Of a DNA stretch of 64,000 nt, positions 12,216-50,158 are shown one piece after another. Positions within the stretch are counted from its first letter, which is position 1. Each line of letters begins with the position of its first letter. The stretch covers positions 544,001 to 608,000 of the forward strand of contig CAXXUO010000001.1 of NCBI GenBank assembly GCA_963666485.2. The letters run 5' to 3'. The notes beneath the pieces were generated by a model, which saw nothing but the letters and a program-made list of their open reading frames with translations, had not been told where the DNA came from and did no database searches. The position numbers and the translations under genes were made by a program. The DNA comes from Syntrophorhabdaceae bacterium (GTDB taxonomy: Bacteria; Desulfobacterota; Syntrophorhabdia; Syntrophorhabdales; Syntrophorhabdaceae).

Positions 12216-12599
12216 TCGATGCCCCTTTTTCAGGATATTACCTGAAGTATACGTGCTTTGAGACCCGGGCACAAGCTAAGTGAGCTCTTATCAATTTGGC
12301 CCGATACATTTATCGAAGGGCAGGGTATAATCCGGTCATGAGCAAGCGCGCCTTGTCAGTTCACGAAAGCCATTGAGCCGGTCATCCCGGGGGAGACCCC
12401 TTTTTATGAACCGCTTAAGCCCGTATTGGAAAAGTACGGCAAACGAATGGGCGAGGCCACAGTAATCCGGTAATACGTGAAGTTTGCAGCTTCACGTCCG
12501 GGAGGACCTGTATGAGTTGCTTCTTGACCCAATCCGGCCGATAATAATTGGTATATTTCAGTGTTCGGGCGTCAAAAAATAGAAAAGGAGGGGCGCGCG

Positions 12600-17446: not shown

Positions 17447-18139
17447 TTACAGGTCAGGCAGCCCCACCTGGCCTAAAAGCTCCGACCGTGCCCGGCGCAG
17501 CGCTTCATTCCCCGGGTCCCGCTGTGACAATGAGACGGCCTTTTCTATCGCATCATACCAGTACCCGTTCGCCGCATACTTCCGTATAAGGTCCATGCCT
17601 CCCGTTGCCGAGAATTCCTTTGAAAGCCCGGGTTGAGCGGGCGTGAATATAACGCTGCCCCCGCTCACTATGTCTTTTGACCTCTGCTCCGGATCGGGAA
17701 CGATCGCGACAAACCACTGGTACTCCATCGCAGGCTGCAAAGATACCCCGCTCCCCGAGAGGGACGAGCAATAGATCCCCTCCTTCGGGGGCTTGTTCAA
17801 TTTCTTCTCGTAGACCGGTTTTACCGATTTGCCGTCATCGAGCACTATTTCGATCATAATGTCCGTAGGACGGGAGATGTACCAGCAAAAAGACGGCTGC
17901 GCGACCGACGTGGTCCCCGCGTAGTCCGGGACCAGGGCCACGAGTTTGAGCCCCGTCGTATCGACGCCCCGTGTTCCTCCTCCCACTCTCTTGCCCGGTT
18001 TGCCGAGCATGGGCGGGTTGAACTTGACCGGACCGTCCGCTTTCTTGACCTCCGGTGCCTTATCATCGGCTGAAATGGCGGGTGGTGCATAAACGAATGC
18101 GAGAAATATGACGAGAAACACTGCTGCTATGACCTTCAT
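17447..18139 (-). CDS. Exported DUF928-like protein
   Basis: Signal peptide; GKPGKRVGGGTRG, LVALVP...TTSVAQPSFCWYI, EYQWFVAI, YAANGYWYDAI, LLGQVGL; start overlaps the cyclase stop (ATGA). Confidence 0.8.
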   Translation of the reverse strand: MKVIAAVFLVIFLAFVYAPPAISADDKAPEVKKADGPVKFNPPMLGKPGKRVGGGTRGVDTTGLKLVALVPDYAGTTSVAQPSFCWYISRPTDIMIEIVLDDGKSVKPVYEKKLNKPPKEGIYCSSLSGSGVSLQPAMEYQWFVAIVPDPEQRSKDIVSGGSVIFTPAQPGLSKEFSATGGMDLIRKYAANGYWYDAIEKAVSLSQRDPGNEALRRARSELLGQVGLPDL

Positions 18140-20079
18140 GTCCTGCCCTCCTTTATTCCGTTCCCGGCATCGGATATTACCTCGAAAACGGTTAAGCGGT
18201 CCTTCTTTCCCTTCAGAGAGACCGCGCCGATACCGACCGTTTCAAACCTCCCTCCCAGCCGTTTGAGGGTTGCCTCGCCAATCAAAACCCTCCACGGCCG
18301 GCTCCGGTCGTCGGACGCCGATGCTCCCTCTTTTTGAAACCCTTCGAGGCGCGACGCAATATTGACCGTGTCCCCGATAACCGTGTATTCCATCCTCTCC
18401 GAGCTTCCGAGGCACCCGGCAACGATGGGCCCCGTAAATATTCCGATGCGTGTATAGGCTGACGGCAGGCCCCTTTTTTGCCATACGGCATTAAGCTTCA
18501 GGGTCGCATCCCCCATTTCAAGGGCGCAGAGCACTGCGCTCATCGCGTCGGCATTTATGTGGCTTTCGAGCTCTTTTTTCAGCGGGGCCCCGAAGATGGC
18601 CATGACAGAATCGCCGATATACTTGTTGATCGTCCCCCCGTGACTGATAATGACCGATCCCATCGCCTCCATGTATTCATTGAGCCAGTGAATGAGGACC
18701 TCCGGGTCGAGTTTTTCGGAGATCGAGGTAAAGCCTTTCAGATCGGTAAAAAGGATCGTCGCTATGAATTTCTGGGATGAAGGCCGTCCACCGGACATAA
18801 ATTTGTCCCGGTCTTTCCACAATTCCGCGGCGACACTTGCAGATACATGCTTTGAAAAAAGCTGCATCATGGATTCGCGTTCTGCCCTTTCGACGGTAGA
18901 GATATATGCCGTGATAAAGCCGGATGAAGCGAGGCAGGACATGAGCACCGGGATCACGGGCAGCCACCAGCCGGCAAGGAATGCGAGGAATGTGACCGCG
19001 GCGACTATGGCCAGGACACAGAAACCGGAGAGAAGGAAATGCCAGATCTTCCTTGTAAACAGCGTAAATATCCCGCCGAGCAAACCGGCGACGATTATCA
19101 GGACATATTCCAGCGATTCGGGGAAAAATCGCAGGGGCTTGCTCTCTCCCAGCGCAAAACGTATCAGCTGGGACGCCATGAATGCATGGATCTCGATACC
19201 GTACTGAAAATCCCGCGATGCCCCGAACCTGTTGATCGGCGTGTGAAAAATGTCCTTCAAACTTACCGCCGTTGAACCTATGATGACGATCTTGTTGGAA
19301 AATATCCCCGCGGGAACCTTTCTTTTCATAAGGTCATCCAGCATGATTGATTGAAACGGGGGACCCTTGTAATCGAGGATATACTGGTATCCCCGGGCAT
19401 CGATCCCGGCATATGCTGCGTCATATTCCCCGAGCGGTGTAAAGGTGGTCTTTCCTAACCTCATATGCGTCGGCTCCCTCGCATCGGGTTCCGGGACGAT
19501 CTTAAAATTTTTTAGATACTGCAATGCCAGAAGAAGCGATAACGAACTGTATACCGTCTTTCCGTCATCGAGGAAGAGAAGCCCCCGCCGGATCGCACCG
19601 TCCGGGTCCAGGATTATATCGTTAAAACCCACCCTCTCAGGATCCCGCAAGGAATATGGCCCGCCAACGCCCGGCTCCCGGTCGTCGCCCAGTTTTCTTA
19701 TAGCGAATACATTGGCCCTTTCGCGAAACACCTTTTCAAGCATTACCTTCCCCGGCGGGACTTGAATATCGCGAAGGATATCGAGGCCAATGGCCGACGG
19801 CTTATCCGCGGCGACCGAATCGAGCAGCACGGCCAGTTCACCATCCGTCATGGGCCAGTGCCCCAGGGCTTTTATGTCCCCTTCCGTTATTTTTACCAGT
19901 ATGATCCGGTCATTACGCACGCCGGGATCATACTGCAACCCGACGTAAAGATCGTAGCAAATAAGCTCTATGGGCTGGAGAATGCCGCTGAAGCGCACCA
20001 GTATTACGGAAAGCGATATCAGTGCGCTGGCGGCAAGAATGAAAAGAATGCGCGGCAGTCCCGTTCCGGGGAGATAGAT
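18136..20079 (-). CDS. CHASE2-domain membrane adenylate cyclase (class III)
   Basis: CHASE2 (IILVKITE...WPMTD...AIGLDILRD, DPDGAIRR, KIVIIGSTA, GIEIHA), 3 TM helices, cyclase LFTDLKGFT / INKYIGDSVMA / EYTVIGDTVNIASRLE. The first canonical start (GTG 19998) omits the N-terminal TM; an in-frame ATC at 20079 follows GGGAGG. Confidence 0.88.
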   Translation of the reverse strand: MYLPGTGLPRILFILAASALISLSVILVRFSGILQPIELICYDLYVGLQYDPGVRNDRIILVKITEGDIKALGHWPMTDGELAVLLDSVAADKPSAIGLDILRDIQVPPGKVMLEKVFRERANVFAIRKLGDDREPGVGGPYSLRDPERVGFNDIILDPDGAIRRGLLFLDDGKTVYSSLSLLLALQYLKNFKIVPEPDAREPTHMRLGKTTFTPLGEYDAAYAGIDARGYQYILDYKGPPFQSIMLDDLMKRKVPAGIFSNKIVIIGSTAVSLKDIFHTPINRFGASRDFQYGIEIHAFMASQLIRFALGESKPLRFFPESLEYVLIIVAGLLGGIFTLFTRKIWHFLLSGFCVLAIVAAVTFLAFLAGWWLPVIPVLMSCLASSGFITAYISTVERAERESMMQLFSKHVSASVAAELWKDRDKFMSGGRPSSQKFIATILFTDLKGFTSISEKLDPEVLIHWLNEYMEAMGSVIISHGGTINKYIGDSVMAIFGAPLKKELESHINADAMSAVLCALEMGDATLKLNAVWQKRGLPSAYTRIGIFTGPIVAGCLGSSERMEYTVIGDTVNIASRLEGFQKEGASASDDRSRPWRVLIGEATLKRLGGRFETVGIGAVSLKGKKDRLTVFEVISDAGNGIKEGRT

Positions 20080-20098
20080 GGCGGCCTCCCGTGACCGT

Positions 20099-22426
20099 CT
20101 ACAGCCAGTTCCCTACCAGGACAAAGGGGGCCCAATAACAGGGGTGCTGATAACGTTCACCCTTGAGCAGTTTCAGCTGGGCCTGCCGGAGTGCCTTTGC
20201 CTTCGAGAACGATCTGTCGGTCAAATTCCTGTAAAATTCCACGACGAGGTCCGAACTGGCCTGGTCGTTGATGTACCACAGTGTTGCAAGTGCACTGCGC
20301 GCCCCGGCCTTGACCGACAGGCCGGCAAGGCCGAGTGCTGCCCTGTCGTTCGTTGCCGCCGACTGGCAGGCGCTGAGTGTCAGCAGCTCGACGGGGTTTT
20401 TCCGGTACCGGCTCATCCCGACAAACTTTTCGAGCTGGTCCATGTTCAGTTTCTCGTTCCATGTCAGGATATACGTCTCCGCGGCATTCTCCGAGAACTC
20501 GCCATGCGAAGCTATGTGCACGATGGAAAACGGGGTCTTCCTGATCTCGTCGTTGATCAGGCTGGTCTCGAATTCCTTGTTCATAAGCGCCGTACTGCGG
20601 ACCAGCTTCCGGATCTCTTCAACTTCGTACGGCACGTAGGGAAGAGGCGAAAAACCCTGGACCCCGTCGGACAATCCTGCAATGAGCACATCGTCCTTTT
20701 CCCTTCCCCGCGGGGATGCGTCTACCAGGGTAAGGCCGGGCATCGTCACGGCCGCAAATCGCGTGATGAGGAAGTCCTTCCCGTCATGGAGCGCCGCAAA
20801 AGGCATAGTCCGGAGTGTCCCGTCCGGTACGAATATTATGGTGTCGACCTTCTGCGCAATAAGGTCCGCCTCGATGGGGCGCACCATCCAGTCGTACAGT
20901 TTCTGCCCGTGGACCATGTATTCACGGGATGTCCTGTTCTCGAGGGTGCGCCTGAACTGCCGTATCTCTTTCGCGACCGTGTCCCGGCCCAGGCCGACCG
21001 TGTATTTCCGGAAACCCCGGGGCAGGCCGGCAATGACCTCGATGCGGTCCGGGAGGGTTATAAAGTAAAAGATCGCACGGCCCGGGTGGACAAGATCGGC
21101 GTTGTCTATTTTGATTCGTTTGGCCGCCACGCAGCTGTTTTGAAAATAGTCCTGCAGCTCCGCCGCCCGCAGGAGCTCCACGGCCTGGATCGCTTCGAGA
21201 AGATAGGTCTCCGATTGCTTTTCGTCTCTTTTTGAGGCTGCTTCCTTCAGGAGAAGATTGACGAATTCCACGTAGATCGGCTCGGCGGAATCGGTGTATG
21301 TCGCCTGGTTGTAAATGCGGCAATCCCCCGAAAATTCGTACCGGATCGACTGGAGAACGTTGATGGTCTTGCGATACGCGAGAAGGGCCTCCTGTGCGTT
21401 GCCTGTCCGGACCATCAGCCGCGCGGTCTGCCAGTACCACCGGTACAGGGATTCAAGCGCCCCGGCGGCCTGCGCCTCGAAGATCGCCTGCCGGGTATAC
21501 CGCATCGCCGCATCGTAGTCGCCCTCGTTTTCGCTTAAAGCCCCGAGGTAGCCCGATGCGTACGAGAGGGAAACGTGGTCCTTTATCGGTTCCGCGCTCT
21601 TGAGTGCCCCATCGAGCGCCCTGCGCGCCTCCTTTGTCAGCTCCGCCTTCCGGTTGGGTGAACGTGATGCCAGTGCGGTGTACATCCGGGCGATCCCGAT
21701 AAGCCCGTATGCCTTGTCATGCGAATCCGGCAATGCCATGTGCCGTGCATACGCCGACCTGAGCGATGCCTCCGCGGACCTCACGTCATCCCGCGCGAGG
21801 GATGTACGGGCGGAATTCGACATGGCCCGTGCCGCGAGAAGATTATTTCCGGTGCGCACGGCTAGCTCATAGCTTCGCTGATAAAGCCCTGTGGCCTCGG
21901 CGTACTTCTTCTGGAGAAAAAGTAGGTTGCCTGTATTATTGAGCACCGCAGCCAGTGCTGCGTCATTTTTGGTTTCTTCCGCCAGGCGCTGTGCCTCTTC
22001 AAGTACTTTCGCGGCTTTGTCCAGATCGTTGGTCAGGAGATAGCTATTGCCGATATGGGCGAGAATGACCGCTTCCTTATCGTTCGGCTCCGTTTTCTTT
22101 GAAAGCCTGAGGGCCGTTTCCAGGCATTTCTGCGCGGCCCGGTAGTGCCCGAGGGAATTGTATGCCAGCGACAGGCTAAGCAGGACGTCCGCCTGTTCTT
22201 TCACCCGGCCGAGGTCCCCGAGAACTTTGTCGGCCTCGATCCCTCGTTTGATGGCGCCCGTAAAATCACCGTTCTTGAGTCCGTCGTTCATCTGTTCGAC
22301 AAGCTTTTCCGCCGCCGCAGTTTCCTTCGGCGCTTCGTTTTGCTGCACGTCTTCGGCCATGGCGGTACCTGAAAAGAAAAGGGCACATACGATGGCGATT
22401 ATAAATATATATTTCATGATTTTCAT
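20099..22426 (-). CDS. Exported TPR + CHAT (caspase-like) protease
   Basis: Signal peptide MKYIFIIAIVCALFFSGTAMA; multiple TPRs; CHAT motifs IFVPDGTLRTMPFAAL, VHIASHG (His), LTLSACQSA (Cys), ATLWYIND, HPCYWAPFVLVGNWL. Confidence 0.92.
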   Translation of the reverse strand: MKIMKYIFIIAIVCALFFSGTAMAEDVQQNEAPKETAAAEKLVEQMNDGLKNGDFTGAIKRGIEADKVLGDLGRVKEQADVLLSLSLAYNSLGHYRAAQKCLETALRLSKKTEPNDKEAVILAHIGNSYLLTNDLDKAAKVLEEAQRLAEETKNDAALAAVLNNTGNLLFLQKKYAEATGLYQRSYELAVRTGNNLLAARAMSNSARTSLARDDVRSAEASLRSAYARHMALPDSHDKAYGLIGIARMYTALASRSPNRKAELTKEARRALDGALKSAEPIKDHVSLSYASGYLGALSENEGDYDAAMRYTRQAIFEAQAAGALESLYRWYWQTARLMVRTGNAQEALLAYRKTINVLQSIRYEFSGDCRIYNQATYTDSAEPIYVEFVNLLLKEAASKRDEKQSETYLLEAIQAVELLRAAELQDYFQNSCVAAKRIKIDNADLVHPGRAIFYFITLPDRIEVIAGLPRGFRKYTVGLGRDTVAKEIRQFRRTLENRTSREYMVHGQKLYDWMVRPIEADLIAQKVDTIIFVPDGTLRTMPFAALHDGKDFLITRFAAVTMPGLTLVDASPRGREKDDVLIAGLSDGVQGFSPLPYVPYEVEEIRKLVRSTALMNKEFETSLINDEIRKTPFSIVHIASHGEFSENAAETYILTWNEKLNMDQLEKFVGMSRYRKNPVELLTLSACQSAATNDRAALGLAGLSVKAGARSALATLWYINDQASSDLVVEFYRNLTDRSFSKAKALRQAQLKLLKGERYQHPCYWAPFVLVGNWL

Positions 22427-22430
22427 ACCT

Positions 22431-25400
22431 TTACTGTATCGGGCTGGCCAGAAGGCCGCCGGGCTGCGGCGGCAGGCCATCCCGCCCTTTCATCACGAAG
22501 GTGCTCATCTCCTCCTCGTTCTCCGCGCAGGCCTTCGGCACCAGGGAAGCGAGGTTTAGAAACGTGTCCGGGAGATCCACCATGGTGGCGCTCACATCCA
22601 CATAGGGGGCACTGATGCCCACCGTGCCTGATAGGCCGAAGCTCGATGATGCGCTGACAATACTGTCCAAGCTCTGCAGGAAGACATCCGTGATGAGGCT
22701 GATGTGACCGCCTTCTCCATATACCGCATTCGCAATGATCTTACTGGCATTCTCGAGCACAACAGCGTCCGCAGCAATAAAGATATTTCCGCCGTTTCCG
22801 TATCCGCCGACACTTGCAGAAATGCTGCTATTGATAAGATGGAGAAGCCAGGGGTCTATCGTAATGTTGCCGCCGTCGGAGCTTACTGTTGCGGCGGTAA
22901 TGGAGCTGTCCCTCAATTCGATCAGGCCCGGGACTTTGATGCTAATGTTGCCTCCTGTGCCGGTGCCCTTGCTTTCTGTTGTGATCTTGGAGCCTGACGA
23001 AAGATAAAGGTCCGAGGACGCAACATTTATATTACCGCCATTTCCTGTCGAGCCGATGCCAGTATTGGCGTAAATGCCACTATTGTTGGATAGGTTTGCA
23101 GCCCCAGAGGCTGAAATATTTATTGATCCTCCGTGTCCAGCTCCCTGTGTTGTTGTAATAATGTCACCGGCATTTAATGTCATACTGCCCACAGCCATGT
23201 TTATACTCCCGGCGTTTCCGGAACCGGTTGTTGCCGCCTGGATAAAGCCGGTATTTCCGACATATAGGGAAGGAGTATTGATGGTTATGCTCCCGGCATT
23301 GCCTGTTCCGCTTGAATCGGCTCCAATTGAGCTTGACATATCAGAATTTTTTCCCGTTATAGTTACAGATTGGGTAGAAGCAATTTTGATTGATCCTCCT
23401 ATGCCCGAAGATTCCGTGGATGTATTTATTTGGCCTCCATTGTCTAGTAATAAAGTTCCTACATTGAGGCCTATGCTCCCCGCATTTCCTCCAGAACGCG
23501 TCATCGCTTGTATCCCACCTTGGTCCAGAACACTTAAAGAGGGACTGGATATCGAGATATTGCCTGCACTACCGGGGCCGACTGTATTTGCAACAATGCC
23601 GCTTTGCAGCCCCGTGGGGCTAATCCCCGACACAAGCATTCCCTGCGTTGCATTGATGTTGATGTGCCCGCCAGAACCAGAACCGATCGTTGATGCTACT
23701 ATCCTGCCACCGTCAACCAGTGACAATTCGCCCACGTTGAGGTCAATACCACCCGCATTGCCGGTAGATACTGCTCCAGCTTGGATGCCCGCATTAACAA
23801 TACTCAAAACGGGCGTGGTTACTGATATATTACCGCCATTTCCTATTCCCGCCGTCGTCGCGCCAAGGCTGCTTGGGGTGCCTGCGGCATCCTGACCCGC
23901 AATGTAGACAGAATTGCTTGCATTCACATTGATTGAACCGCCCGATCCCGATCCCATCAACATGGTCGATACAAAAGCCCCTCCCGTCACGTTCATGGTT
24001 CCGACATTTATGGTAATCGCACCCGGTTTGCCGGAACCAAACCCCGTTGATGAATCTATTACTGCGGTGTCGGCAACATTCAGGACAGGAGCGTATACGG
24101 TTATATTGCCCGCGTTTCCGTCATTCAAAGTACCTGCGTAAAGTCCGCTTCTGCCCGCTGTTCCCCATCCGGATATCGTGACTGCGCCCGTTGCATTAAC
24201 GCTTATCGAACCTCCGGTCCCCGGGCTCGCCGTCGCTGATGTCACTTTCCCGCCGTTGAGAATAGAGAGAGAACCGGTATTCAGGGTAAGATTGCCGGCA
24301 TTCCCCTGTCCTATTGTCATCGATTGTATATAGCCATTATCACCAATATATAAGGAAGGTGCCGCTATTGTCACATTCCCTGCGTTTCCGGAACCTGCGG
24401 CGGCAGACAAAATATAAGTGCCGGTGTCTGAGATAGAAGCAGACTTTGTTGCCGTAATATTTACGGAACCACCTGAACCGGCACTGTAAGTCGTTGTATC
24501 AATAGTGCTTTTATCAGAAAATGTGAAGTCCCCTGCGTTTATATTGACATCACCAGCTCGACTCGTATTCATTGAATAAGTTTTAATTGTACTGGAACCG
24601 AGGATATTGAGCCAATTGCCCGCGGAAAGACTTATAAGCCCGCCGGGGCCGGTTCCAGTCGTCAATACCCCGTCATCTGCTGTCGAATCAAGTACTGAAT
24701 GAGACAAATTGATCTTATCGGCGGCAAGAATAATATTTCCGGCAGGTGCACTTGTCCCCCGGTATGTGTATGAAGAAAACCTGCCTTGGGAAATGTCCAT
24801 TAGATCGCCCGCTATGGCAGTGATCGTACCCCCGGCACCTGTACCGGAATATGACGTCCATGCCCTGAAAGAGTCATCGGAAATTTTCATTGTTCCGGAC
24901 CGTAAGTAAATATTGCCGGAAGGGGCATTCGTAGAATGGTCCGAATAAGAATAAAATTTACTTGTCGAAATATCCATCGCTCCTGTTGATGTAAGAGAAA
25001 TTGACCCCGCAGCTCCGGTTCCGGACTTATATGATTCAGAATCAAACGTGCTTCCGGAAACTGTCATAGTCCCGGATTGAAGGTTTATAGCCCCAGCGGG
25101 AGCATTTGTGGAATAATTCGAATAAGAAGAAAATTTACTGGACGAAATATTCATAGAATCAGTTGCTGCGGCAGTGATTGACCCTCCTGATCCAGTACCG
25201 GAGCTATATGTGTCAGCATCAATCGTGCTTCCGGAAATTGTCATAGTCCCGGAATTCAAATTTATGCCTCCGGCGGGCGAATTGAGACCAGATAACGTAT
25301 ATGAATAAAGTTTGCTACCAGAAATATTCATCAACCCATCCGCGGTGACATTGATCGTTCCCGCCGGCCCAGCACCGCCGTATGTGTCCGCATCGAGTAC

Positions 25401-26870
25401 GCTACTGGTTAAATTTATTGATCCCCCTTTAAGCCTGATATTACCGGCCGGCCCACTCGAATATTCTGAATAGGTATCGATGTGACTGCTACCCGAAATG
25501 GTCATAGCACCCAGCGCTTCCGCACTAAATAATCCCCCCGACCCTGTGCCGGATTTATACGTAGTTGCGTCAATCAAGCTGCTTCCGATAATATTCAAGG
25601 ATCCGGCATTGAGGGTAATATTCCCGGCAGGCGCATTGGGAGCTTTATAGGTGTAAGATATTAGTGAGCTCCCCGAGATACTTGTTAAACCGCCAGAAGT
25701 CATATCGATTGTCCCGCCGGCACCCGTCCCATACGATGTGTCAGTGTCCAGTGTACTGTTCGTCAGGGTAATGGAATCGACTGCCTTCAGTGTGATTTTC
25801 CCGGCAGCCCCGGAAGCCCCGTAGCTGCTCGAATCGATATAACTGTTGGTGAGATTAACAGTATTCGAATCCAAAGTTGTATTTCCCGCTTTACCCGAAC
25901 AGTACAATGTATATGCGGACATACTACTTGAAACCAACGATATCGAACTGGTTGCCTTGATATTAATATCTCCAGAATTTCCTGAACCCGTTGTCGTTGT
26001 TTTTATTCTTCCTCCCGATATAAAAAACTGGCCTCCCTGGATGTATACTGCTCCGCCCGTTGTTCCATTTGTATCTACATCGCTCGTATATCCGGATGGA
26101 TAAGGATGCGCGGCCGTATTTCGCAGTATTTGAACATTACCGAGATTTGAGGAAACTTGCACTAAAGGGGGACCTGTAGAGATGCTAACTTCCCCGGGGG
26201 ATGCAACGCTGACGAGGCTTACCTGTCCCCTTTGCGCCCGAAGAACTGCGTTATCCACGGTAATATCGCCTCCGACCACCGACAGGTTCTTTCCCGCCGG
26301 CATGACGAGCTTTGTGTTGGGCTGAAAATTAATGGATGCAGGCGTCGTCGCCAGAAAACCGAAAGCCGACGGCGTGTCGGCGGTCAGGATATCCCCCGTC
26401 GATGAGTTCGCGTAATAACGCCCGCCCGTACCCAGCTTGATGTAGTCGGCGGTGCTCACATGAAAAGCTCCGCTTATGCTAAGAGAGGCGCTGGGGCCAA
26501 AAACGACACCGTTGGGATTAATGAGAAACATATTAGCCCCGGCGATAGTCGAAGCTAAAAGGCCGTTAATGTTCGATACATATGACGAACCAACCCCTGT
26601 GACGCGGGAAATAACGTTCTGAATGCCGGCAGGTCCGGAAAAGACCGCACTCTCAGTATTAGTTATTCCAAATTTAGAAAAGCTGTGAAAAAGGTTGTTC
26701 CCGAACTGTGTCCCCGCCGTTATGCCATAGGCGGGGCCAGCGGAGACCACGGTGCCCCTTGTCCCATCGGCGACGATGCTCTGTGCGGACACACCACCAT
26801 GGGTCAGGATGAAAAACAATAATGTGGCAACCGCGATTGCCATTCCTGTAGATCTTTTTATTGCTGTCAT
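22431..26870 (-). CDS. Filamentous haemagglutinin-like TpsA exoprotein 1 (about 1480 aa)
   Basis: Signal peptide; TPS domain NLFHSFSKF...NVISRVTG...SNINGLL...NMFLINPNGVVFG; Gly/Ser/Thr beta-helix repeats; C-terminal tail ...FVMKGRDGLPPQPG. Confidence 0.9.
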   Translation of the reverse strand: MTAIKRSTGMAIAVATLLFFILTHGGVSAQSIVADGTRGTVVSAGPAYGITAGTQFGNNLFHSFSKFGITNTESAVFSGPAGIQNVISRVTGVGSSYVSNINGLLASTIAGANMFLINPNGVVFGPSASLSISGAFHVSTADYIKLGTGGRYYANSSTGDILTADTPSAFGFLATTPASINFQPNTKLVMPAGKNLSVVGGDITVDNAVLRAQRGQVSLVSVASPGEVSISTGPPLVQVSSNLGNVQILRNTAAHPYPSGYTSDVDTNGTTGGAVYIQGGQFFISGGRIKTTTTGSGNSGDINIKATSSISLVSSSMSAYTLYCSGKAGNTTLDSNTVNLTNSYIDSSSYGASGAAGKITLKAVDSITLTNSTLDTDTSYGTGAGGTIDMTSGGLTSISGSSLISYTYKAPNAPAGNITLNAGSLNIIGSSLIDATTYKSGTGSGGLFSAEALGAMTISGSSHIDTYSEYSSGPAGNIRLKGGSINLTSSVLDADTYGGAGPAGTINVTADGLMNISGSKLYSYTLSGLNSPAGGINLNSGTMTISGSTIDADTYSSGTGSGGSITAAATDSMNISSSKFSSYSNYSTNAPAGAINLQSGTMTVSGSTFDSESYKSGTGAAGSISLTSTGAMDISTSKFYSYSDHSTNAPSGNIYLRSGTMKISDDSFRAWTSYSGTGAGGTITAIAGDLMDISQGRFSSYTYRGTSAPAGNIILAADKINLSHSVLDSTADDGVLTTGTGPGGLISLSAGNWLNILGSSTIKTYSMNTSRAGDVNINAGDFTFSDKSTIDTTTYSAGSGGSVNITATKSASISDTGTYILSAAAGSGNAGNVTIAAPSLYIGDNGYIQSMTIGQGNAGNLTLNTGSLSILNGGKVTSATASPGTGGSISVNATGAVTISGWGTAGRSGLYAGTLNDGNAGNITVYAPVLNVADTAVIDSSTGFGSGKPGAITINVGTMNVTGGAFVSTMLMGSGSGGSINVNASNSVYIAGQDAAGTPSSLGATTAGIGNGGNISVTTPVLSIVNAGIQAGAVSTGNAGGIDLNVGELSLVDGGRIVASTIGSGSGGHININATQGMLVSGISPTGLQSGIVANTVGPGSAGNISISSPSLSVLDQGGIQAMTRSGGNAGSIGLNVGTLLLDNGGQINTSTESSGIGGSIKIASTQSVTITGKNSDMSSSIGADSSGTGNAGSITINTPSLYVGNTGFIQAATTGSGNAGSINMAVGSMTLNAGDIITTTQGAGHGGSINISASGAANLSNNSGIYANTGIGSTGNGGNINVASSDLYLSSGSKITTESKGTGTGGNISIKVPGLIELRDSSITAATVSSDGGNITIDPWLLHLINSSISASVGGYGNGGNIFIAADAVVLENASKIIANAVYGEGGHISLITDVFLQSLDSIVSASSSFGLSGTVGISAPYVDVSATMVDLPDTFLNLASLVPKACAENEEEMSTFVMKGRDGLPPQPGGLLASPIQ
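24610..25500 (-). repeat. Degenerate 177-bp (59-aa) tandem repeats inside TpsA1
   Basis: GAAAT(A/G)T(T/C)CAT recurs at 24790, 24967, 25144 and 25321, a period of exactly 177. Boundaries are approximate. Confidence 0.8.
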
Positions 26871-26955
26871 AGGGAATCTCCTTTTGCAGGAACCCAAGGA
26901 CAAAATGGAAATTAAAACCCTGTTCTACGAAGAAACTGGAACATCTCTCACACCC

Positions 26956-29727
26956 TTAGTATATCGGGCTTGCAAGAAGCCCGCCAGGCTGCGGCGGCAG
27001 CCCGTCCCTTCCCTTCATCACGAAGGTACTCATCTCCTCCTCGTTCTCCGCACAGGACTTCGGCATAAGTGAAGCGATGTTGAGGAACGTGTCCGGGAGG
27101 TCGACCATGGTGGCGCTCACGTCCACGTACGGGGCGCTAATGCCCACCGTACCCGACAGCCCGAAGCTTGACGATGCACTGACAAAGCTGTCAGGGCTCG
27201 TGAGGAAGGCGTTCGAAACGATGTTGATGTGGCCGCCGTCACCGTATTCCGCGTTCGCGATGATGTTGCTTGCATTCTCGAGGATCACGTTGTCCGCCAC
27301 GATATTGATATTGCCACCGTTGCCAATTCCACCTACACTCGCCGTGATCGAGCTGTTGGTCAGTCGAAGGAGCCACGGGTCTATCGAGATATTGCCGCCG
27401 TCTGTGCTCACCGTCGCCGCCGTGATAGAACTATCCGTCATCTGGATCGTACCCGGAACCTTGATGGTGATGTTGCCGCCGGTGCCGGTGCCGGTGCTCC
27501 GGGTGCCAATGCTTGAGCCGCCGGACATGTAGAGGTCCGACGCGTTGACGTTGATGCTGCCCGCATTGCCTGAACTGTATGTATTAGAGAAAATGCCGCT
27601 CGGCCAGCCAACGTTTGTACCTGAAATGGTCACAGGGCCCGAAGCGTTGACATTGATCGAACCGCCTGTTCCAGTTCCTCGTGTTGAACCGGACAGTTGT
27701 CCCCCCGAAGTAAGGGCCAGGCTGCCGGCATTGAGATCAACGATCCCTGCATTACCCGAATTCCATGCCATCGAGAAAATACCAGTTGGATTATCTTCTC
27801 TCCCTTCTGAGATGCTGACCAGACCCGAAGCATTGACAACTACCGTTCCGCCTGCTCCCGTTCCTCGTGTTGAGCTGGCGAGCTGCCCCCCCGATGTAAG
27901 AGTTAGGTTTCCGACATTAAGGTTTACGGTTCCCGCATGCCCCGAACTCCATGCGCTCGAAAAAATACCACTCGGCCAATCAAAGCTGCCTTCTGAGATG
28001 TTCACCGGGCCCGAAATATTGACATTGACCGTTCCGCCTGCGCCCGTTCCTCGTGATGTGCTAGCAATTTGCGCCTGGGATGCTATGGTCAGGCTTCCCG
28101 CGTTTAGGAATATAGTCCCCGCATTGCCCGAACCCCGCGTGTTCGAGAAAATGCCGGTTGGATAGTGATCGGGATTCATAATCCATCCCGACACGATCAC
28201 AGGACCGGATGCGTTAATATTGATTATCCCGCCATTACCCGTCCCCCTTGTTATGCCGGAGATTTCCCCACCGGATGCCAAGGCAAGGGTGCCTACGTTG
28301 AGGTTAACGCTGCCTCCATTGCCAGAACCTGTCGGGCCTACCCCCGCAGCAATTAACCCGCCATTAGAAGCAGCAAGATATGGCGTGTCTACTGTGATGT
28401 TCCCGCCCTTTCCCGCACCATTCGCCATAGCATAGATACCAGATACTGCTCCGGTAACACTAAATCCGGAGATAATCACTGATTCTGAACTTGCGATGGT
28501 TATGTCTCCTCCTGAACCGATACTTGAGGTATTCGTCGATACATAACTGAGGTCATTCACGATAACATTCTTTGACTTGATATCAATGGTACCGGCATTG
28601 CCAGAACCCCGACCAACTGCGTTAATACCTGAAGAACCTGAAAGAGCGATGTAATCCGCGGCATTGAGGGTAATAGCGCCACCTGATCCGGAATACAAGG
28701 TATCCGATTCAATGAGAGCATGTGATAAACTGATACTGCTCGCATTCACGGTGATACTCCCTCCATTCCCGACTCCTTCTGCTATCGAAACAAAAGTGCC
28801 CCCATTCACGGTAATAGGCCCCGTTGTGGCAATATTGAGAATCCCTCCAGGCCCGGCACCTGAAGAGTTCGTCACTATCGAGCCGCCTGTCAATATGAAT
28901 TGTCCTCCCCGGATGTACACGTCACCTCCGGTCGTTTCCCTTGTTGATACATAACTTCGGGATAGTTCTATTGTGCCCAAGTTGCCGAACCCGTTCATTA
29001 ACGGAGGGCCGGTACCAATTGTTACTTCGCCCGGGGAACCGACGCTGATGAGATTGACCTGTCCCCCTGGGGCCCCAATCCAATTACGGGTCATATTAAT
29101 ATCACCTCCGACAATGGATACCATTTTGCCGGTCGGCACGGTTAGTACCGTTGTCGACCAGGCAGATGTGGTGTCTCCCGCAAAGCTTATTGGCGCCGGC
29201 CTTGCGGACAGGAATCCAAATGCCGAAGGCGGGTCTGAGGTAAGGACATCCGCTGCCGGGTTTGAGGCATCAAAACGGCCGGTCGCACCCAACTTTATGT
29301 AGTCCGCCGTGCTGACATGAAAGGAGCCTGTTATACTGAGAGATGCGTTGGGACCAAAAGCAACGCCGTTGGGATTGAAGAAATACATGTTGGCGCCATT
29401 AATGGTCGAAGCCAAAAGACCATCTATATTCGATACATACGACGGGCCGACCCCTGTAACCCGGGAAATTATGTTCTGAACCGATGCCGGCCCGGAAAAC
29501 GTGGCGCTGCCTGAGGTAGGAACACTAAAATTCTGAAAACTGTGAAATAAGTTCCCGCCCACCTGCGTACCTGCCGTTATACCAAAACTCAGAGGACCGC
29601 CGGAAACTACCGTTCCCCGGCTTCCATCGGCCTTGATGGCCTGACCAAACCCTGCAGAAACTGAGATATACAAAAGAAGTACCGCCAGGTATAGCGGCGT
29701 AACGATGGTTCTTTTTATTCCTGTCAT
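26956..29727 (-). CDS. Filamentous haemagglutinin-like TpsA exoprotein 2 (923 aa)
   Basis: Signal peptide; NLFHSFQNF...NIISRVTG...NMYFFNPNGVAFG; beta-helix repeats; same C-terminal tail as TpsA1. Confidence 0.9.
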   Translation of the reverse strand: MTGIKRTIVTPLYLAVLLLYISVSAGFGQAIKADGSRGTVVSGGPLSFGITAGTQVGGNLFHSFQNFSVPTSGSATFSGPASVQNIISRVTGVGPSYVSNIDGLLASTINGANMYFFNPNGVAFGPNASLSITGSFHVSTADYIKLGATGRFDASNPAADVLTSDPPSAFGFLSARPAPISFAGDTTSAWSTTVLTVPTGKMVSIVGGDINMTRNWIGAPGGQVNLISVGSPGEVTIGTGPPLMNGFGNLGTIELSRSYVSTRETTGGDVYIRGGQFILTGGSIVTNSSGAGPGGILNIATTGPITVNGGTFVSIAEGVGNGGSITVNASSISLSHALIESDTLYSGSGGAITLNAADYIALSGSSGINAVGRGSGNAGTIDIKSKNVIVNDLSYVSTNTSSIGSGGDITIASSESVIISGFSVTGAVSGIYAMANGAGKGGNITVDTPYLAASNGGLIAAGVGPTGSGNGGSVNLNVGTLALASGGEISGITRGTGNGGIININASGPVIVSGWIMNPDHYPTGIFSNTRGSGNAGTIFLNAGSLTIASQAQIASTSRGTGAGGTVNVNISGPVNISEGSFDWPSGIFSSAWSSGHAGTVNLNVGNLTLTSGGQLASSTRGTGAGGTVVVNASGLVSISEGREDNPTGIFSMAWNSGNAGIVDLNAGSLALTSGGQLSGSTRGTGTGGSINVNASGPVTISGTNVGWPSGIFSNTYSSGNAGSINVNASDLYMSGGSSIGTRSTGTGTGGNITIKVPGTIQMTDSSITAATVSTDGGNISIDPWLLRLTNSSITASVGGIGNGGNINIVADNVILENASNIIANAEYGDGGHINIVSNAFLTSPDSFVSASSSFGLSGTVGISAPYVDVSATMVDLPDTFLNIASLMPKSCAENEEEMSTFVMKGRDGLPPQPGGLLASPIY
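27550..28230 (-). repeat. Degenerate 186-bp (62-aa) tandem repeats inside TpsA2
   Basis: GA(G/A)AAAAT(G/A)CC (GIFS) at 27587, 27773, 27959 and 28145, a period of 186. Confidence 0.8.
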
Positions 29728-31389
29728 GGGAAACCCCCTTTTACAGGGAAGCCAAAGACAAACTGGAAATTAAAGCCCTGTTCCTGAAGTGAATTGCTCA
29801 CCTTGTCGATGTTCCGGAAAGGATACCCGTAATAGAACTGGAGGCTCATCCGGTTCGCTATGTTCCACATGACGCCCATGCCGGCGCTGCCGATGCTGTC
29901 GGGATCGGGGGTGTCCCTCTTCGAGTTCCATGACCAGCCAAAATCGGTGAAAGGGACGAGGTAGATGATGTTGTTCCCTGATGACGAGGTGTAGATGGGG
30001 ATGCGCAGTTCGAATGAGCTTGCGATGCCGTTGTCCCTGACGAGCTGGTTCTCCGGGTACCCCCGCACGGAGTTGATGCCGCCGATCGAGAACTTTTCGA
30101 TCGGCAGGAGGGGGGTCGCGGGTAAACTGCATGTCCGTCCGGAAAACGAACTGCGTCCCGCCTTCGGTGATCTTGCGCAGGTACTTGACCTGCCCGAGCC
30201 ATGCAAGGAACCGGCCGTCAGGCCCCGGACTATCCCCGCGAGTGGCGCCGAGTATGCTGAGCCCAAGGCTGAAGCTCGACCGGGCCGCGATAATCTGGTT
30301 CTGCGATCGGGAAACATATTCCTGCGCGAACCGGAGCACCCGTACCTTGGACTTGCCGTCGTCCTGCCCTTCCGAGAAGGAGAAGCCTTCCCCCAGCAAA
30401 GTCTGCGTGCTGTCCCTGTAATCACCGGTGAGCGAAAGCCAGAATTCATGCTCAGGGGTCCGTATGATGGGCTGACTCAGGGTGATCCCGAACGTGTTCG
30501 TCAAACTCTTTATGTCGAGGCTGCGGAAAACGTCCTGGATCACCGTGCTCTGGTTGTTCGTGTAGTGAACGTTCAGATACGTGTCATACGCGGTGATCGG
30601 CAGCGAATAGGATATCCTGTATTCGTCGAGGCCCTGCGTCTTCCCGTAGCTGCCCTCCAATACATCGCCCAGACCGAACAGATTCTGGTGGCTGAGCCAC
30701 AGCTCTCCCTTTACATCGCCTATGCTCGGGTTCACGTTGTTGTTGAAGTTTATGCTCGCCTTGTAAGGCAGGTTCTCTTCGACCTTGACGTTAAGCTCAC
30801 CCTCGCCGGGTTTGACCCCGGGCTTCAACTCTGCGTTGAGGCGCTTGATCCGGGAGTCCTGGTTGAGAAGCTGCAGCATGTCCTGGAGTTTTCCCATGTT
30901 CAGAGGGGGGCCGGTGGCACGCTCTATGCGTTTCGTAAAATAGCTTGTCCGGAAGTATTTGTTACCCTCGACGTTGATGCTCGTGATATTGCCTTCGATG
31001 ACCTGGATCCGCACCGTGCCGTCAACGACCTGCTGGTCGGGGATTATGGCACCCGAATTGATATACCCGTTGTTAACGTAATGCAGGGTGATGGCCTGCC
31101 TGAGAGATTCCAGTTCCTCAAAGGTGATCTCCCTGTTCTCGTACGGGGCCGATATCTTTCCGAGCTGCTCGCTTGAAAATATGGTGTTTCCGGTGAACTC
31201 AAACGTTTTGACCTTTATTTTGGGAAGCGTCTTCAAGTCCTGGAACTGGGGGGCCACGGGTGAATATGACGGCTGCTGGTCGATCTGCTGAAGACGTTCC
31301 GCGTAAAGTACCGCAGAATGACAGAAGATAGAGAGAAAACAAAAGAGTCCCGCTGCGAATCCGGAAAGGTATCCGGACCGCCCCGGCAC
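29724..31389 (-). pseudogene. ShlB/FhaC/HecB-family TpsB outer-membrane transporter with a +1 frameshift
   Basis: POTRA (FEFTGNTIFS...YVNNGYINSGA...IQVIEG) and barrel in ORF 29770..31389 up to FTRDP; continues in ORF 29724..30449 as PLLPIEKFSIGGINSVRGY...ELRIP...FTDFG...QGFNFQF. The break is at a G6 run (30110-30115). Confidence 0.85.
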
Positions 31390-31771
31390 TTCTCGCAGCG
31401 GATCATTCCGAAAACGGAAGCGTTTGATCGCCCACCTCTTTTGCTGTTTAATGTTTAAGGTATTTAGTAAATATTGTCATACTCTCTCTAGCATGACAAT
31501 GCTGAAAAATTGGGGTGATAATGTAGTTAATTTCAGTACATTCTCGGCTAATTCGGACAAATAAAGCCCTTTTCACGACGAAAGATCCCCAGTCTGAGCA
31601 ATTCGCGAAAAATTATTGTTTTTGTCGGAAAATTTCATAACAATACAAGAAACGTCTCAGATTTGTTTTAATAGATTTCGATCGACGGGGGGTATCGGAC
31701 GGACGGCGGTCGCCCGGTCAAGTACCAGGGGGGGTGCTTGACAAATAGAAAAAGAGTGCTTTACTTATAGT

Positions 31772-33256: not shown

Positions 33257-33426
33257 GACGTCCCGGGAGATGGCGTCTTAAGCCTTATGCCGCAAGCATC
33301 CCCGCCATGCGGCGCTTGAAAAGGATTACCCGGATACATACGGTTCTAAAGGGCCAGGACCGGCCTTCAAGGGCGTCCTCTGTCGGGGCTTGAGGACGCT
33401 GCCATACGATACAGGAAGGAGTGCAC

Positions 33427-36342: not shown

Positions 36343-36369
36343 GGAAAGATATGACGGGACCGGTGGTGC

Positions 36370-37722
36370 ATGGCTGAAAGGGAATCGGAGCTGGATATAA
36401 AATTTGAAAACGTGAACGACCAGATCATCGGGACGCTCTGGAAGCCTCCTTTCATCTTCTGGTTCGTTGTCGGGGTCTGCTTTGTCGCGTTCCTCTATGG
36501 TCTCGTCGCATGGGGTTACCTGGTCGCGACCGGCATGGGGTCCACGCGCCTGCGTCCTCCCTCCGTCATGTGGGGCATCTTTCTGTCCAATTTTATCTTC
36601 TTCATCGGTCTTGCACATTCGGGAACCCTTATTTCCGCGATCCTATACCTTTTCCGGGCAAAGTTCCGGACGTCGATCAACCGGATGGCCGAGGCGATGA
36701 CCATGATATGCATCGCCCTTGCGGGCACCTACCCCCTCATCCATCTCGGAAGAAGCTGGCTGATCTACTGGATATTCCCCTACCCCAACCAGCGGCAGCT
36801 ATGGCCGGATTTCTTCTCCCCGCTCATCTTCGATTTCCTGGCCGTATCGACGTATTTTACCGTCAGCCTCATTTTCTTCTATACGGGACTCGTACCAGAT
36901 CTCGCCGCGGTCCGCGACCGGACGCAGGGGCCGTTCCGCAAGGTCTACGGGTACTTCGCTATGGGCTGGACGGGTTCGTCAAAACAATGGCACCATTACG
37001 GCACATCGTATCTTCTTCTTGCGGGCCTCGCGACCGCCCTCGTTATTTCCGTCCATACCGTCGTTTCATGGGATTTTGCGCTTCCCATCCAACCCGGGTG
37101 GCACAGCACGATATTCCCCCCCTACTTTGTGGCCGGGGCCATACATTCGGGTGTCGCAATGGTCCTCACGCTGCTCATTCCGATGCGGCGGCTTTTCAGA
37201 ATAGAAAATATCGTTACGACGAGGACGCTCGAACTGCTCGCCGAAACAACGATACTGATGGCAGGGATCCTCGGCTATTCGTACCTCACCGAGCATTTCA
37301 TGGCGTGGTACAGCAAGAATGTCTTCGAGGAACAGATCTTCAAATTCCGGGTCCTCGGGTATTACGGCTGGATATACTGGATGGTGGTTCTCTGTGCGGT
37401 GATCGCACCGATGTTCTTCTTCGTCAGGAAGTTCCGAACCACACCGATCGCACTTTTCATCATATCGATCATCATTAACATAGGCATGTGGTGGGAAAGG
37501 TTCGTCATCGTCATCCAGTCGCTCTCGCAGAATTACGTGCCTTTCCAGTGGGGTTTTTACTGGCCGGGCTGGATAGAGCTTGCCTGGACGCTCGCGACGT
37601 TCTGTTTTCTTTTCGCGGTCTTCATGCTCTTCGCGAAATACCTGCCTTCCATCCCGATCTCCGAAGTGAAAAAGGAATCGGGGATGCCCAGGGAAAAAGG
37701 GGGGCTCTATCGTGAAGAATGA
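36370..37722 (+). CDS. actC: ACIII subunit ActC (NrfD/PsrC-family quinol-binding membrane subunit)
   Basis: NFIFFIGLAHSGTLISAIL, SINRMAEAMT, IHLGR, SPLIFDF, SVHTVVSWDFA, WHSTIFPPYFVAGAI. Confidence 0.92.
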   Translation: MAERESELDIKFENVNDQIIGTLWKPPFIFWFVVGVCFVAFLYGLVAWGYLVATGMGSTRLRPPSVMWGIFLSNFIFFIGLAHSGTLISAILYLFRAKFRTSINRMAEAMTMICIALAGTYPLIHLGRSWLIYWIFPYPNQRQLWPDFFSPLIFDFLAVSTYFTVSLIFFYTGLVPDLAAVRDRTQGPFRKVYGYFAMGWTGSSKQWHHYGTSYLLLAGLATALVISVHTVVSWDFALPIQPGWHSTIFPPYFVAGAIHSGVAMVLTLLIPMRRLFRIENIVTTRTLELLAETTILMAGILGYSYLTEHFMAWYSKNVFEEQIFKFRVLGYYGWIYWMVVLCAVIAPMFFFVRKFRTTPIALFIISIIINIGMWWERFVIVIQSLSQNYVPFQWGFYWPGWIELAWTLATFCFLFAVFMLFAKYLPSIPISEVKKESGMPREKGGLYREE

Positions 37723-38227
37723 GAATGCCCTGCTCGCAACCTTTCTCCATGTGGACAGATTTCTTGCGTGCCTTAAAATCCTGAAAGAAGAAAAGCGCTG
37801 CCGCGTCATCGAAACCTTTTCGCCGGTGCGCCTCCCCGAGATGCAGGAGATAGTAACCCCGAAGTCAAGCCCGGCACGCTTATTCACCCTCATAGGGGGG
37901 ATTATCGGGGCAACGGGCATCGTCAGCCTTGCGGCATACGCGCATCTGAGCTTCCGCCTTATCGTTTACGGAAAGCCGGTCATTGCATGGGTGCCATGGG
38001 TCATCGTGGCATTCGAGGGCATGGTCCTTATCGCTTCATTGTTCGCCTTTGTCTCGTGGGTGTTTAAGGCGGGGCTGCCGCAGGCATCGATCGAACCCGG
38101 ATACGATGCCGCTCTGTCGGGGCATGCATTCGGCATCCTCGTCGCACCGGCACATATCGACGACCGCCAGCTCGAGGAGTTCCTGAGGAAGAACGGGGCC
38201 GAGGAGGTGCGCCATGTTGCCGCCTGA
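37712..38227 (+). CDS. actD: ACIII subunit ActD (DUF3341)
   Basis: ETFSPV, two TMs, LIVYGKP...VAFEGMVL, GAEEV end; position after actC. Confidence 0.82.
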   Translation: MKNENALLATFLHVDRFLACLKILKEEKRCRVIETFSPVRLPEMQEIVTPKSSPARLFTLIGGIIGATGIVSLAAYAHLSFRLIVYGKPVIAWVPWVIVAFEGMVLIASLFAFVSWVFKAGLPQASIEPGYDAALSGHAFGILVAPAHIDDRQLEEFLRKNGAEEVRHVAA

Positions 38228-50120: not shown

Positions 50121-50158
50121 GCCCCTTGACCTCCTTTATCTTCCCGGTCCCGTCCCCT

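Follow-up and report, generated by a model that had tools for sequence, protein, structure and literature searches.

Co-conservation of two-partner secretion, a TPR-CHAT protease, DUF928 and a CHASE2 adenylate cyclase suggests a bacterial module for signalling across the envelope

TPR-CHAT proteases, which join tetratricopeptide repeats (TPR) to a caspase-like CHAT domain, are little known outside CRISPR and DdvA, according to one report (PMC11506125). That report describes Craspase, in which Cas7-11 acts with the TPR-CHAT protein Csx29 to cut Csx30, and the DdvA/DdvS pair, in which a periplasmic TPR-CHAT is proposed as the site-1 protease of the anti-sigma factor DdvA, cleavage being still a hypothesis. 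CHASE2 adenylate cyclases appear in the NsrA - CyaD1/CyaD2/CyaK - Clr pathway of Sinorhizobium meliloti (PMC13001267) and in magnetotactic bacteria, where mtxA, encoding a protein with a signal peptide, is followed by a CHASE2 adenylate cyclase gene (PMC4439547). Other papers report caspase-CHASE2 fusions (Kaur et al. 2021, PMC8195603) and CHASE2 and DUF928 as neighbours in Nostoc punctiforme, the latter in the sole paper we found that names DUF928 (PMC5587647). Here we analyse a 64,000-nucleotide stretch of a Syntrophorhabdaceae bacterium genome (assembly GCA_963666485.2, contig CAXXUO010000001.1, positions 544,001 to 608,000; hereafter the window), which brings a CHASE2 adenylate cyclase, DUF928 and a TPR-CHAT protease together with a two-partner secretion (TPS) system. 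The module to which these genes belong is widespread in bacteria and apparently unstudied. Our proposal, held tentatively and at somewhat under even chances, is that the window carries one copy of an envelope module that relays an event at a surface filament through a protease and DUF928 to cyclic AMP (cAMP).

The cluster occupies 17447-31389 on the minus strand and, by open reading frames (ORFs) and Pfam, comprises six co-oriented genes. TpsB (29724-31389) has a POTRA_2 domain (E 7.9e-24) and a ShlB/Omp85 barrel, spread over two frames. It is followed by two exoprotein genes whose sole Pfam domain is the TPS domain PF05860, namely TpsA2 (26956-29727, 923 amino acids, E 3.9e-32) and TpsA1 (22431-26903, an ORF of 1490 amino acids, E 5.7e-33). 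The TPR-CHAT gene (20099-22426) encodes 775 amino acids with TPR repeats and a CHAT domain (PF12770, E 2.1e-58). The CHASE2 and class III cyclase gene extends over 18136-19998 from a canonical GTG, or 18136-20079 with a candidate ATC start (Pfam E 2.3e-49 and 1.4e-22 for the two domains), and DUF928 (17447-18139, 230 amino acids, PF06051, E 4.6e-32) completes the cluster. A preliminary description had presented these as six tightly coupled, co-oriented genes. The gene identities stand, as do the ATGA overlaps at 18136-18139 and 29724-29727 and the gap of 4 nucleotides between the TpsA1 stop and the CHAT ATG at 22426; TpsB as one intact ORF does not.

We then assessed whether the genes keep company elsewhere. 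Loci centred on DUF928 were collected, one genome per species, with a 9-sequence DUF928 alignment as query, and the 79 loci retained represent the best 80 of 210 by likeness to the DUF928 of the window. Partners were counted with local profiles made from the window's proteins, and the 35 whose flanks measure at least 8 kb in each direction are referred to as full-flank. CHAT is found in 55/79 loci (27/35 full-flank), CHASE2 in 40/79 (19/35), the cyclase domain in 39/79 (19/35), TpsB in 46/79 (26/35) and the TPS domain in 39/79 (24/35), and CHAT, CHASE2, TpsB and TPS occur all together in 13 of the 35 full-flank loci. Where CHASE2 is present it mostly adjoins DUF928, lying within 200 bp of it in 30 of 40 loci. 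The two halves of the set can also part company: among full-flank loci, seven have DUF928 with CHAT and TPS and no CHASE2, and four have it with CHASE2 and no CHAT. The loci come from Nitrospirota, several Pseudomonadota lineages, Methylomirabilota/Rokubacteria, Myxococcota, Desulfobacterota, Verrucomicrobiota, Acidobacteriota, Spirochaetales and others, which bears out the earlier expectation that the genes are co-conserved across phyla.

All-against-all clustering of the ORFs in these loci gave, besides the known parts and antisense shadow ORFs, a single further group of conserved neighbours, which encodes proteins binding cyclic nucleotide monophosphates (cNMP). Such genes are present in 14/79 loci; of three checked by Pfam, two are Crp-type regulators and one is a cNMP-binding Na/H exchanger. 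In one CHAT locus without CHASE2, a PilZ-domain ORF (L060:8594-9088; 23.9 bits, the cut-off being 22.5) sits immediately upstream of DUF928, which hints at a link to cyclic di-GMP (c-di-GMP) in that lineage.

The genome of the window also bears on the linkage. Its 3.77 Mb hold one DUF928 gene, two TPS domains (both here), one split ShlB (here), eight CHAT genes and four CHASE2 genes, and DUF928, ShlB, both TPS domains, one CHAT and one CHASE2 fall within 14 kb. This linkage is far beyond chance. DUF928 is found in 1 of 40 other related genomes and in none of 19 of the same genus, and this rarity among the window's relatives indicates patchy and probably horizontal inheritance of the module.

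A physical connection between the filament and protease genes emerged from the C-termini of the TpsA proteins. TpsA2 has a signal peptide, a TPS domain with the NPNG motif, beta-helix repeats and a conserved C-terminal tail; TpsA1 combines a TPS domain with long beta-helix repeats rich in Ser, Thr and Gly, shares this tail, and likely starts at the ATG at 26870 (MTAIKR), judging by its likeness to TpsA2. Both match TIGR01901, and between them they show the sequences NPNGVVFGP and NPNGVAFGP, in keeping with TpsA proteins of type Vb secretion. The two are paralogues, very alike in their TPS domains and last ~190 residues and almost identical over the last ~85, which form the tail (22434-22688 in TpsA1, ...APYVDVSATMVDLPDTFLN..PKACAENEEEMSTFVMKGRDGLPPQPGGLLASPIQ; near-identical copy at 26959-27213 in TpsA2; both minus strand). 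The preliminary description held that neither TpsA carries a toxin and that no immunity gene is present; indeed, the tails are terminal and without a further Pfam domain, TPR-CHAT begins 4 nucleotides downstream, and the C-terminal toxin domain and adjacent immunity gene of CdiBAI systems are thus both lacking. As side observations on these genes, a 186-bp tandem repeat in TpsA2 (27662-28062, 2.2 copies, 76% matches) corresponds to its 62-residue beta-helix repeat, and TpsA1 dips to a G+C content of 0.478 (24-26 kb), compared with 0.56-0.60 on either side.

The tail had been called conserved, and it is: the motif ...APxxDxSGxLxxLP...LLxxxCAxR...SSFVxxGRxGxPxxPGxxLPSP recurs in 43/79 DUF928-centred loci. 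CHAT is present in 37 of these 43, and the tail accompanies TPS in 36 of 39 loci. It lies 0-71 residues from the C-terminus in 45 of 46 ORFs; the exception, L050, continues in frame into TPR-CHAT. We considered whether the tail lies directly upstream of CHAT as a rule and rejected this, since besides the window only L002 and L033 (2 of 35 loci with both) show it.

That continuation is common in a wider set. When longer proteins related to the CHAT domain of the window were sought in a large collection, 495 matches resulted, and among the best 120 of these 113 have TPS and CHAT in one protein, so that at least 113 TpsA-TPR-CHAT fusions exist in the collection. Identity reaches 67-68%, and in Pfam order TPS is N-terminal and TPR-CHAT C-terminal. 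At the junction of one of them, P0036, the sequence ...PKACVERAEQMSSFVVKGRDGLPPQPDALLMSPYAG... is the tail motif of the window, after which the TPR region begins. In G024, a genome of the same family, TpsB, a 2344-amino-acid TpsA-tail-TPR-CHAT protein, a CHASE2-cyclase and DUF928 follow one another in the order seen in the window. As the tail is a covalent junction in fused relatives, the window represents the split form of a TpsA-TPR-CHAT fusion. The split, read from the sequences, falls exactly after the tail, CHAT having gained a new signal peptide.

The CHAT protein begins with a signal-like N-terminus of Sec type (MKIMKYIFIIAIVCALFFSGTAMA), and 38 of 47 long CHAT ORFs have a hydrophobic N-terminal segment, in agreement with the export first suggested. 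Its catalytic residues, His641 and Cys687, lie in SHG and SAC motifs. The dyad, described from the outset as intact, is found in all aligned domains (His 53/53, Cys 53/53), and together with the PF12770 match it places the protein among the caspase-like peptidases of clan CD. From these residues CHAT looks active. Proteases of this clan often prefer Arg. Against PDB sequences the protein matched TPR proteins only. A CHAT protein that is exported by Sec and has no TPS domain should remain in the periplasm, and the periplasm would therefore be the most economical site of action for split and fused forms alike.

The candidate transducer, DUF928, scores 111.7 bits against a cut-off of 26 for PF06051, a family with 6780 representatives at E ≤0.001. 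It has a hydrophobic N-terminus (signal peptide), a disordered N-terminal segment, a beta-sandwich (66-165) and four helices (170-224), in an AlphaFold2 (AF2) model with a mean predicted local distance difference test (pLDDT) value of 84.7. Export with an exposed Arg/Gly motif had been claimed for it; the hydrophobic N-terminus supports export, and the exposure is to be read with the fact that the motif PPMLGKPGKRVGGGTRG (17966-18016, minus strand) lies in a low-confidence, probably disordered part of the model. Its Pro, Gly and Arg positions are conserved: across 17 homologues the N-terminal pattern P-x-x-G-x-P-x-x-R-x-G-G-G-x-R-G is invariant, corresponding to P43, G46, P48, R51, G53-55, R57 and G58. 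The closest fold is the C-terminal domain of MtxA (4Z29; Foldseek E 7.8e-5), which VIA-align superposes on model residues 65-230 with Z 9.8 and a root-mean-square deviation of 3.8 over 146 residues; the runner-up (Z 7.1) covers the sandwich only. The DUF928 profile gave no match among PDB sequences at E ≤1, and the link to MtxA is therefore structural only.

What the Arg/Gly motif might do is suggested by its distribution. A loose pattern of it is present in 57/79 DUF928 loci. CHASE2 accompanies 35 of these 57 against 5 of the 22 loci without the motif (full-flank, 18/27 against 1/8), and CHAT, found in 39/57 and 16/22, shows no association. The contrast, which just a few clades drive, favours a role related to CHASE2. 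In some CHAT loci with a Desulfobacterales-type DUF928, long perfect tandem arrays, (SRGL)n, (GVRG)n or (LTRGYARG)n, replace the single motif and lie between a 'YNPPxKxAEIRRRE' segment and the DUF928 domain (L028:9191-10510, L047:381-1553 and L064:9437-10606). Such arrays look like multiplied Arg-Gly sites. Both the link of the motif with CHASE2 and the arrays would fit an Arg-directed cut that frees a short Gly-rich peptide read by CHASE2. A search for longer DUF928 homologues scored no fusion, which is weak evidence, the fusions having come from the loci instead; several top relatives of DUF928, namely P0155-P0158, P0160 and P0161 (460-500 amino acids, with two or three matched stretches), have tandemly duplicated DUF928 domains.

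The cyclase comprises a first transmembrane helix (TM1, if a non-canonical start is used), the CHASE2 ectodomain, three further transmembrane helices and a class III cyclase domain. In an alignment with the solved adenylate cyclases CyaC (1WC0) and CyaB (3R5G), both Asp residues and the Lys, Thr, Asn and Arg are conserved, within the motifs FTD, KyiGD and eyTviGdtVNiasR. Glu and Gly replace this Lys and Thr in Cya2 (2W01), a guanylate cyclase. We take the Asp pair to bind metal, Lys with Thr/Asp to define the substrate as adenine, and Asn with Arg to act on the transition state. In 23 relatives D419, D463 and R550 are invariant and N546 nearly so. The adenine-specifying and catalytic residues named in the preliminary description are thus present, and by its sequence the cyclase looks active and of the adenylate type. 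A periplasmic CHASE2 domain, also claimed there, is supported by the PF05226 match (E 2.3e-49) and by TM2-4, and is weakened by TM1 lying outside the ORF that runs from the sole canonical start.

The CHASE2 ectodomain model is confident (pLDDT 88.5, predicted template modelling score 0.90). No solved chain covers the domain by sequence, Foldseek returned no fold relative at E ≤0.001, and the best hit of a wide VIA search had Z 4.9. As for its signal, no paper naming a signal or ligand of CHASE2 was found, most of the literature on CHASE2 since 2022 included and subscription journals outside the coverage. A complex of the ectodomain with mature DUF928, predicted on alignments that we built, scored 0.57 (best of 3 controls, 0.00), to be read against a pass mark reached by 116/157 solved complexes and 2/215 mismatched pairs, and at scores of 0.60 or below by 18/157 and by both mismatches. 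Three runs agree in at least 49% of contacts, with a partner pLDDT of at least 78. The model lends weak support to CHASE2-DUF928 binding. Apart from this, one protein, P0116 (1377 amino acids), has CHASE2 (25-330), a cyclase (433-608), TPR and CHAT (1108-1375) in a single chain, which is either a real fusion or a gene-call artefact.

A different output takes the place of the cyclase in some lineages. In Myxococcota and Spirochaetales loci, two HxxxCxxC motifs, a transmembrane helix and a Pro/Ala-rich linker precede the DUF928 domain. This region passes the Pfam zf-HC2 cut-off of 22.2 bits in L039, with 22.7, and falls just short of it in two others, with 20.6 and 19.8 bits. All five of the anti-sigma::DUF928 loci checked have a sigma gene of the extracytoplasmic function (ECF) type (Sigma70_r4_2) directly upstream; TPR-CHAT and TpsA are present in them and CHASE2 is absent. 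With DUF928 on an anti-sigma factor beside an ECF sigma gene in place of CHASE2, the output is therefore interchangeable. As judged from gene content, a single input set (TPS and CHAT) with DUF928 as its transducer domain is connected either to a cyclase or to a sigma/anti-sigma pair. The anti-sigma factors of membranes belong to a class of switch that works by regulated proteolysis, as set out in PMC11506125. In our analysis this swap is, by analogy, the strongest argument for protease-dependent signalling from the outside in.

A working scheme can be drawn from these elements. TpsB would export both TpsA beta-helix filaments, and the TpsA tail would stay at or under the outer membrane and dock the Sec-exported TPR-CHAT protein. 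CHAT would act on periplasmic DUF928, most likely in its disordered Arg/Gly-rich N-terminal segment. DUF928 would be the partner of the CHASE2 ectodomain, and a change in DUF928 would switch the cytoplasmic class III adenylate cyclase, a surface event thereby being converted to cAMP. We infer the direction of flow, cutting by CHAT, its substrate and the sensing role of the filament. Outside-in proteolytic signalling, which the preliminary description had put forward, fits the fused tail junction, the anti-sigma variants and the cNMP genes of the 14 loci, and its mechanistic steps are those just given conditionally; strengthened by the fusions and the output swap, it is a plausible and, we think, the best available reading. 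The scheme can be extended to a continuous trans-envelope relay, in which TpsA sits in TpsB while its tail reaches into the periplasm, strain on the filament or a ligand activates the tail-bound TPR-CHAT, and CHAT cuts DUF928 at R↓VGGGTR↓G (multiplied elsewhere as GxxR units); either the peptide so released or DUF928 in its trimmed form would then be the long-sought CHASE2 ligand, and the same cut would be the site-1 cleavage of the anti-sigma factor elsewhere. We consider this full chain of steps quite unlikely.

One departure from the scheme concerns the window itself. The N-terminal part of TpsB (29770-31389) matches positions 1-232 of the ShlB profile and the C-terminal part (29724-30449), in a different frame, positions 231-308. 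The frames meet at a run of six C (30110-30115, minus strand), in which one C is extra: five would give TRDPLLPIEKFSIGG and extend the ShlB match. Programmed +1 frameshifting at this CCC CCC site may be an alternative to an error or a mutation. POTRA and the Omp85-type barrel are thus both present, split over two frames rather than complete in one ORF, and the span 29724-31428 first given for TpsB as one gene cannot stand, its length not being a multiple of three. A GTG at 31389 yields a signal-like N-terminus; the ATC at 31428 used earlier is an in-frame alternative. A genome-wide search gave the two TpsB pieces as its only ShlB matches, so the split TpsB is the genome's only TpsB. The cyclase presents a comparable problem. 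Its ORF from the sole canonical start, GTG 19998, is without the first transmembrane helix, which in all 22 relatives with a recovered N-terminus precedes the CHASE2 profile by 25-45 residues. Upstream, the open frame extends to 20112 and does encode a TM1-type helix (RILFILAASALISLSVILV), and there is no ATG, GTG or TTG in this frame between 20112 and TM1. The best candidate start, to judge from the sequence, is the ATC at 20079, five bases after GGGAGG. Owing to the TpsB frameshift and the cyclase start, this copy may be non-working; it may be impaired unless both are assembly errors.

Several points weigh against the scheme as a whole. It draws on gene content, co-conservation, fusions, the output swap and fold likeness; cleavage, binding and the cAMP response are predictions, and the score of the modelled complex supports it weakly. 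By its distribution, the Arg/Gly motif would suit a role in CHASE2 binding no less than one as the place where CHAT cuts. The loci counts are not independent, because the loci were picked by DUF928 likeness and many are kin, and 4/35 full-flank DUF928 loci are without any partner. Within this genome, one of the four CHASE2 genes and one of the eight CHAT genes are linked to DUF928. The Arg of the tail is not universal (<80% conserved), and tail-bearing TpsA lies upstream of CHAT in 11/35 loci, downstream in 9/35 and on the opposite strand in 15/35. In P0116, the one CHASE2 fusion, CHAT comes after the cyclase, which would make it cytoplasmic unless more membrane helices intervene. Lastly, TpsB of this genome is frameshifted and its cyclase has no canonical start.

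These points invite other explanations. CHAT may only trim or release TpsA at the tail, as in adhesin maturation, the CHASE2 cyclase and DUF928 forming an environmental sensor of their own that controls the adhesin genes or simply goes along with them. The position of the tail, exactly at the TpsA/TPR-CHAT junction of the fusions, would suit self-processing; seven full-flank loci combine DUF928 with CHAT, TpsB and TPS and show no CHASE2 up to 10 kb away; and periplasmic processing of TpsA C-termini is established for FhaB, whose prodomain is processed by DegP, CtpA and SphB1 according to the accessible text. We nevertheless find this account unlikely, since DUF928 keeps with CHAT and TPS when CHASE2 is absent, often serving as an anti-sigma ectodomain next to a gene for an ECF sigma factor, so that a transducer is always attached to the part formed by the protease and TPS, and since cNMP receptor genes occur in 14 of the 79 loci. 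The proposal of a relay to cAMP or sigma factors also has to be set against decay of the window's copy, which would then be a remnant of a horizontally acquired module that does not signal in this strain. The frameshift in the genome's only TpsB, the cyclase without a canonical start ahead of TM1 and the finding of the module in 0/19 other genomes of the genus searched all speak for it. Yet the other five genes are open, including a repeat-rich ORF of 1490 codons, the catalytic residues are all intact, a single-base homopolymer error is a common assembly artefact, and the ATC after GGGAGG could act as a start; on balance decay seems to us rather improbable.

A part in conflict or defence must be weighed as well: filaments or CHAT would detect a phage, predator or competitor at the envelope, and cAMP or an ECF sigma factor would turn on the defence, a role that has been put forward for DdvA/DdvS. 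DdvA, a periplasmic TPR-CHAT anti-sigma factor, controls a CBASS-CRISPR island (PMC11506125); the module is as patchy (DUF928 in 1/40 related genomes and 0/19 of the genus) as mobile accessory systems often are; and in PADLOC the cyclase domain is matched by Pycsar cyclases (E 2.5e-24). That match, though, reflects the generic class III cyclase fold: PADLOC returned generic cyclase (PycC) matches and weak TPR/CHAT matches, the other five proteins having none or weak ones. Pfam scans of the window also show no defence effector or known defence gene adjoining the cluster, the neighbours being metal transporters and respiratory genes. We therefore regard a defence role as very unlikely.

By Pfam, the genes around the cluster are unrelated to it: it is flanked by Nramp and MgtE-like genes at one end and by DsbD-like and alternative-complex-III-like genes at the other. 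Pfam scans of the window detected no ECF sigma gene and no Crp-type regulator or cNMP-binding gene beside the cluster, and NCBIfam gave nothing besides the TPS domain and TPR/BamA matches that stayed under the threshold. Away from the cluster, 12 cNMP-binding domains are matched in the genome; one of them belongs to a gene at the end of the window (63755-64000, minus strand; 607755-608021 on the contig), ~32 kb from the cluster. Respiratory genes include a cluster resembling alternative complex III (33421-39440; a molybdopterin/Fe-S subunit, an NrfD-like protein and ActD), followed by a FixO/cytochrome c fusion protein (40888-42354), and cytochrome bd oxidase subunits I and II (49107-51460). 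Elsewhere in the window, a 1080-amino-acid protein (9030-12272) combines a spermidine-synthase-like domain (566-712) with C-terminal TPR repeats, and a 251-amino-acid protein (61902-62657) is crowded with zinc-ribbon and double-zinc-ribbon motifs.

In many phyla, whether split or fused and with either of two outputs, the module ties CHASE2, DUF928 and TPR-CHAT to type Vb secretion. It thus offers a handle on the signal of CHASE2, on the substrate of an exported caspase-like protease, and on whether two-partner filaments, known as adhesins or toxins, can instead be sensors. A real relay would add to the routes by which cells signal from their surface, next to the TonB-dependent transducers. We found no paper on the module, and none that joins CHAT to DUF928, to two-partner secretion or to hemagglutinins, subscription journals being outside the coverage; papers that name both CHASE2 and CHAT treat other subjects. 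This is in line with the earlier assumption that the pathway had not been defined.

How the module relates to described systems can be seen by taking its parts in turn. In the CdrA/CdrB adhesin, LapG cuts CdrA and LapD works inside-out from c-di-GMP. The module shares with CdrA and FhaB a periplasmic TpsA C-terminus cut by a dedicated protease, leading to retention or release of the filament, if CHAT acts as proposed. The proteases of those systems, however, are serine or LapG-type and not CHAT, and the output domains of the module, cyclase or anti-sigma, point outside-in; by Pfam the window has CHAT and no LapG-type peptidase, and a class III cyclase in place of GGDEF/EAL. On the cAMP side, the CHASE2 adenylate cyclases of the NsrA pathway raise cAMP on a proteinaceous signal through an outer-membrane beta-barrel, with a Crp-family readout. 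The outer-membrane partner there is NsrA and not TpsB/TpsA, and the available text of that report mentions no protease or DUF928. MtxA parallels the DUF928 part: it is an exported protein whose C-terminal fold is the nearest to DUF928 and whose gene adjoins a CHASE2 adenylate cyclase gene. Between the two sequences no similarity is detectable, the genes stand in the opposite order, with mtxA ahead of the cyclase, and the accessible part of the mtxA report includes no CHAT or TPS genes. Fold likeness and adjacency together therefore make MtxA a second, sequence-unrelated instance of the DUF928 fold beside CHASE2.

For the protease, Craspase provides a TPR-CHAT protein that is inactive until an allosteric trigger and whose targets are described, in the text available, as putative anti-sigma factors. 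It differs in being cytoplasmic, RNA-guided and associated with cas genes: the CHAT protein of the window is exported, and Pfam scans found no cas domain, Cas7-11 included, among the window's ORFs. DdvA/DdvS is a further parallel. There, outside-in signalling is proposed to begin with proteolysis by a periplasmic TPR-CHAT that has a His-Cys dyad, a partial precedent for the gating of ECF factors, and the ECF-type variants of the module likewise pair TPR-CHAT with a zinc-finger anti-sigma factor and an ECF sigma factor. In DdvA, by contrast, CHAT is part of the anti-sigma factor itself, with no TPS pair, DUF928 or CHASE2 in the part of the report available. In the window, the CHAT protein has a signal of the cleavable type and no anti-sigma domain, and no ECF sigma gene lies beside the cluster. 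Across the module CHAT is either separate or fused to TpsA, DUF928 proteins take the anti-sigma role, and the output in the window is a cyclase.

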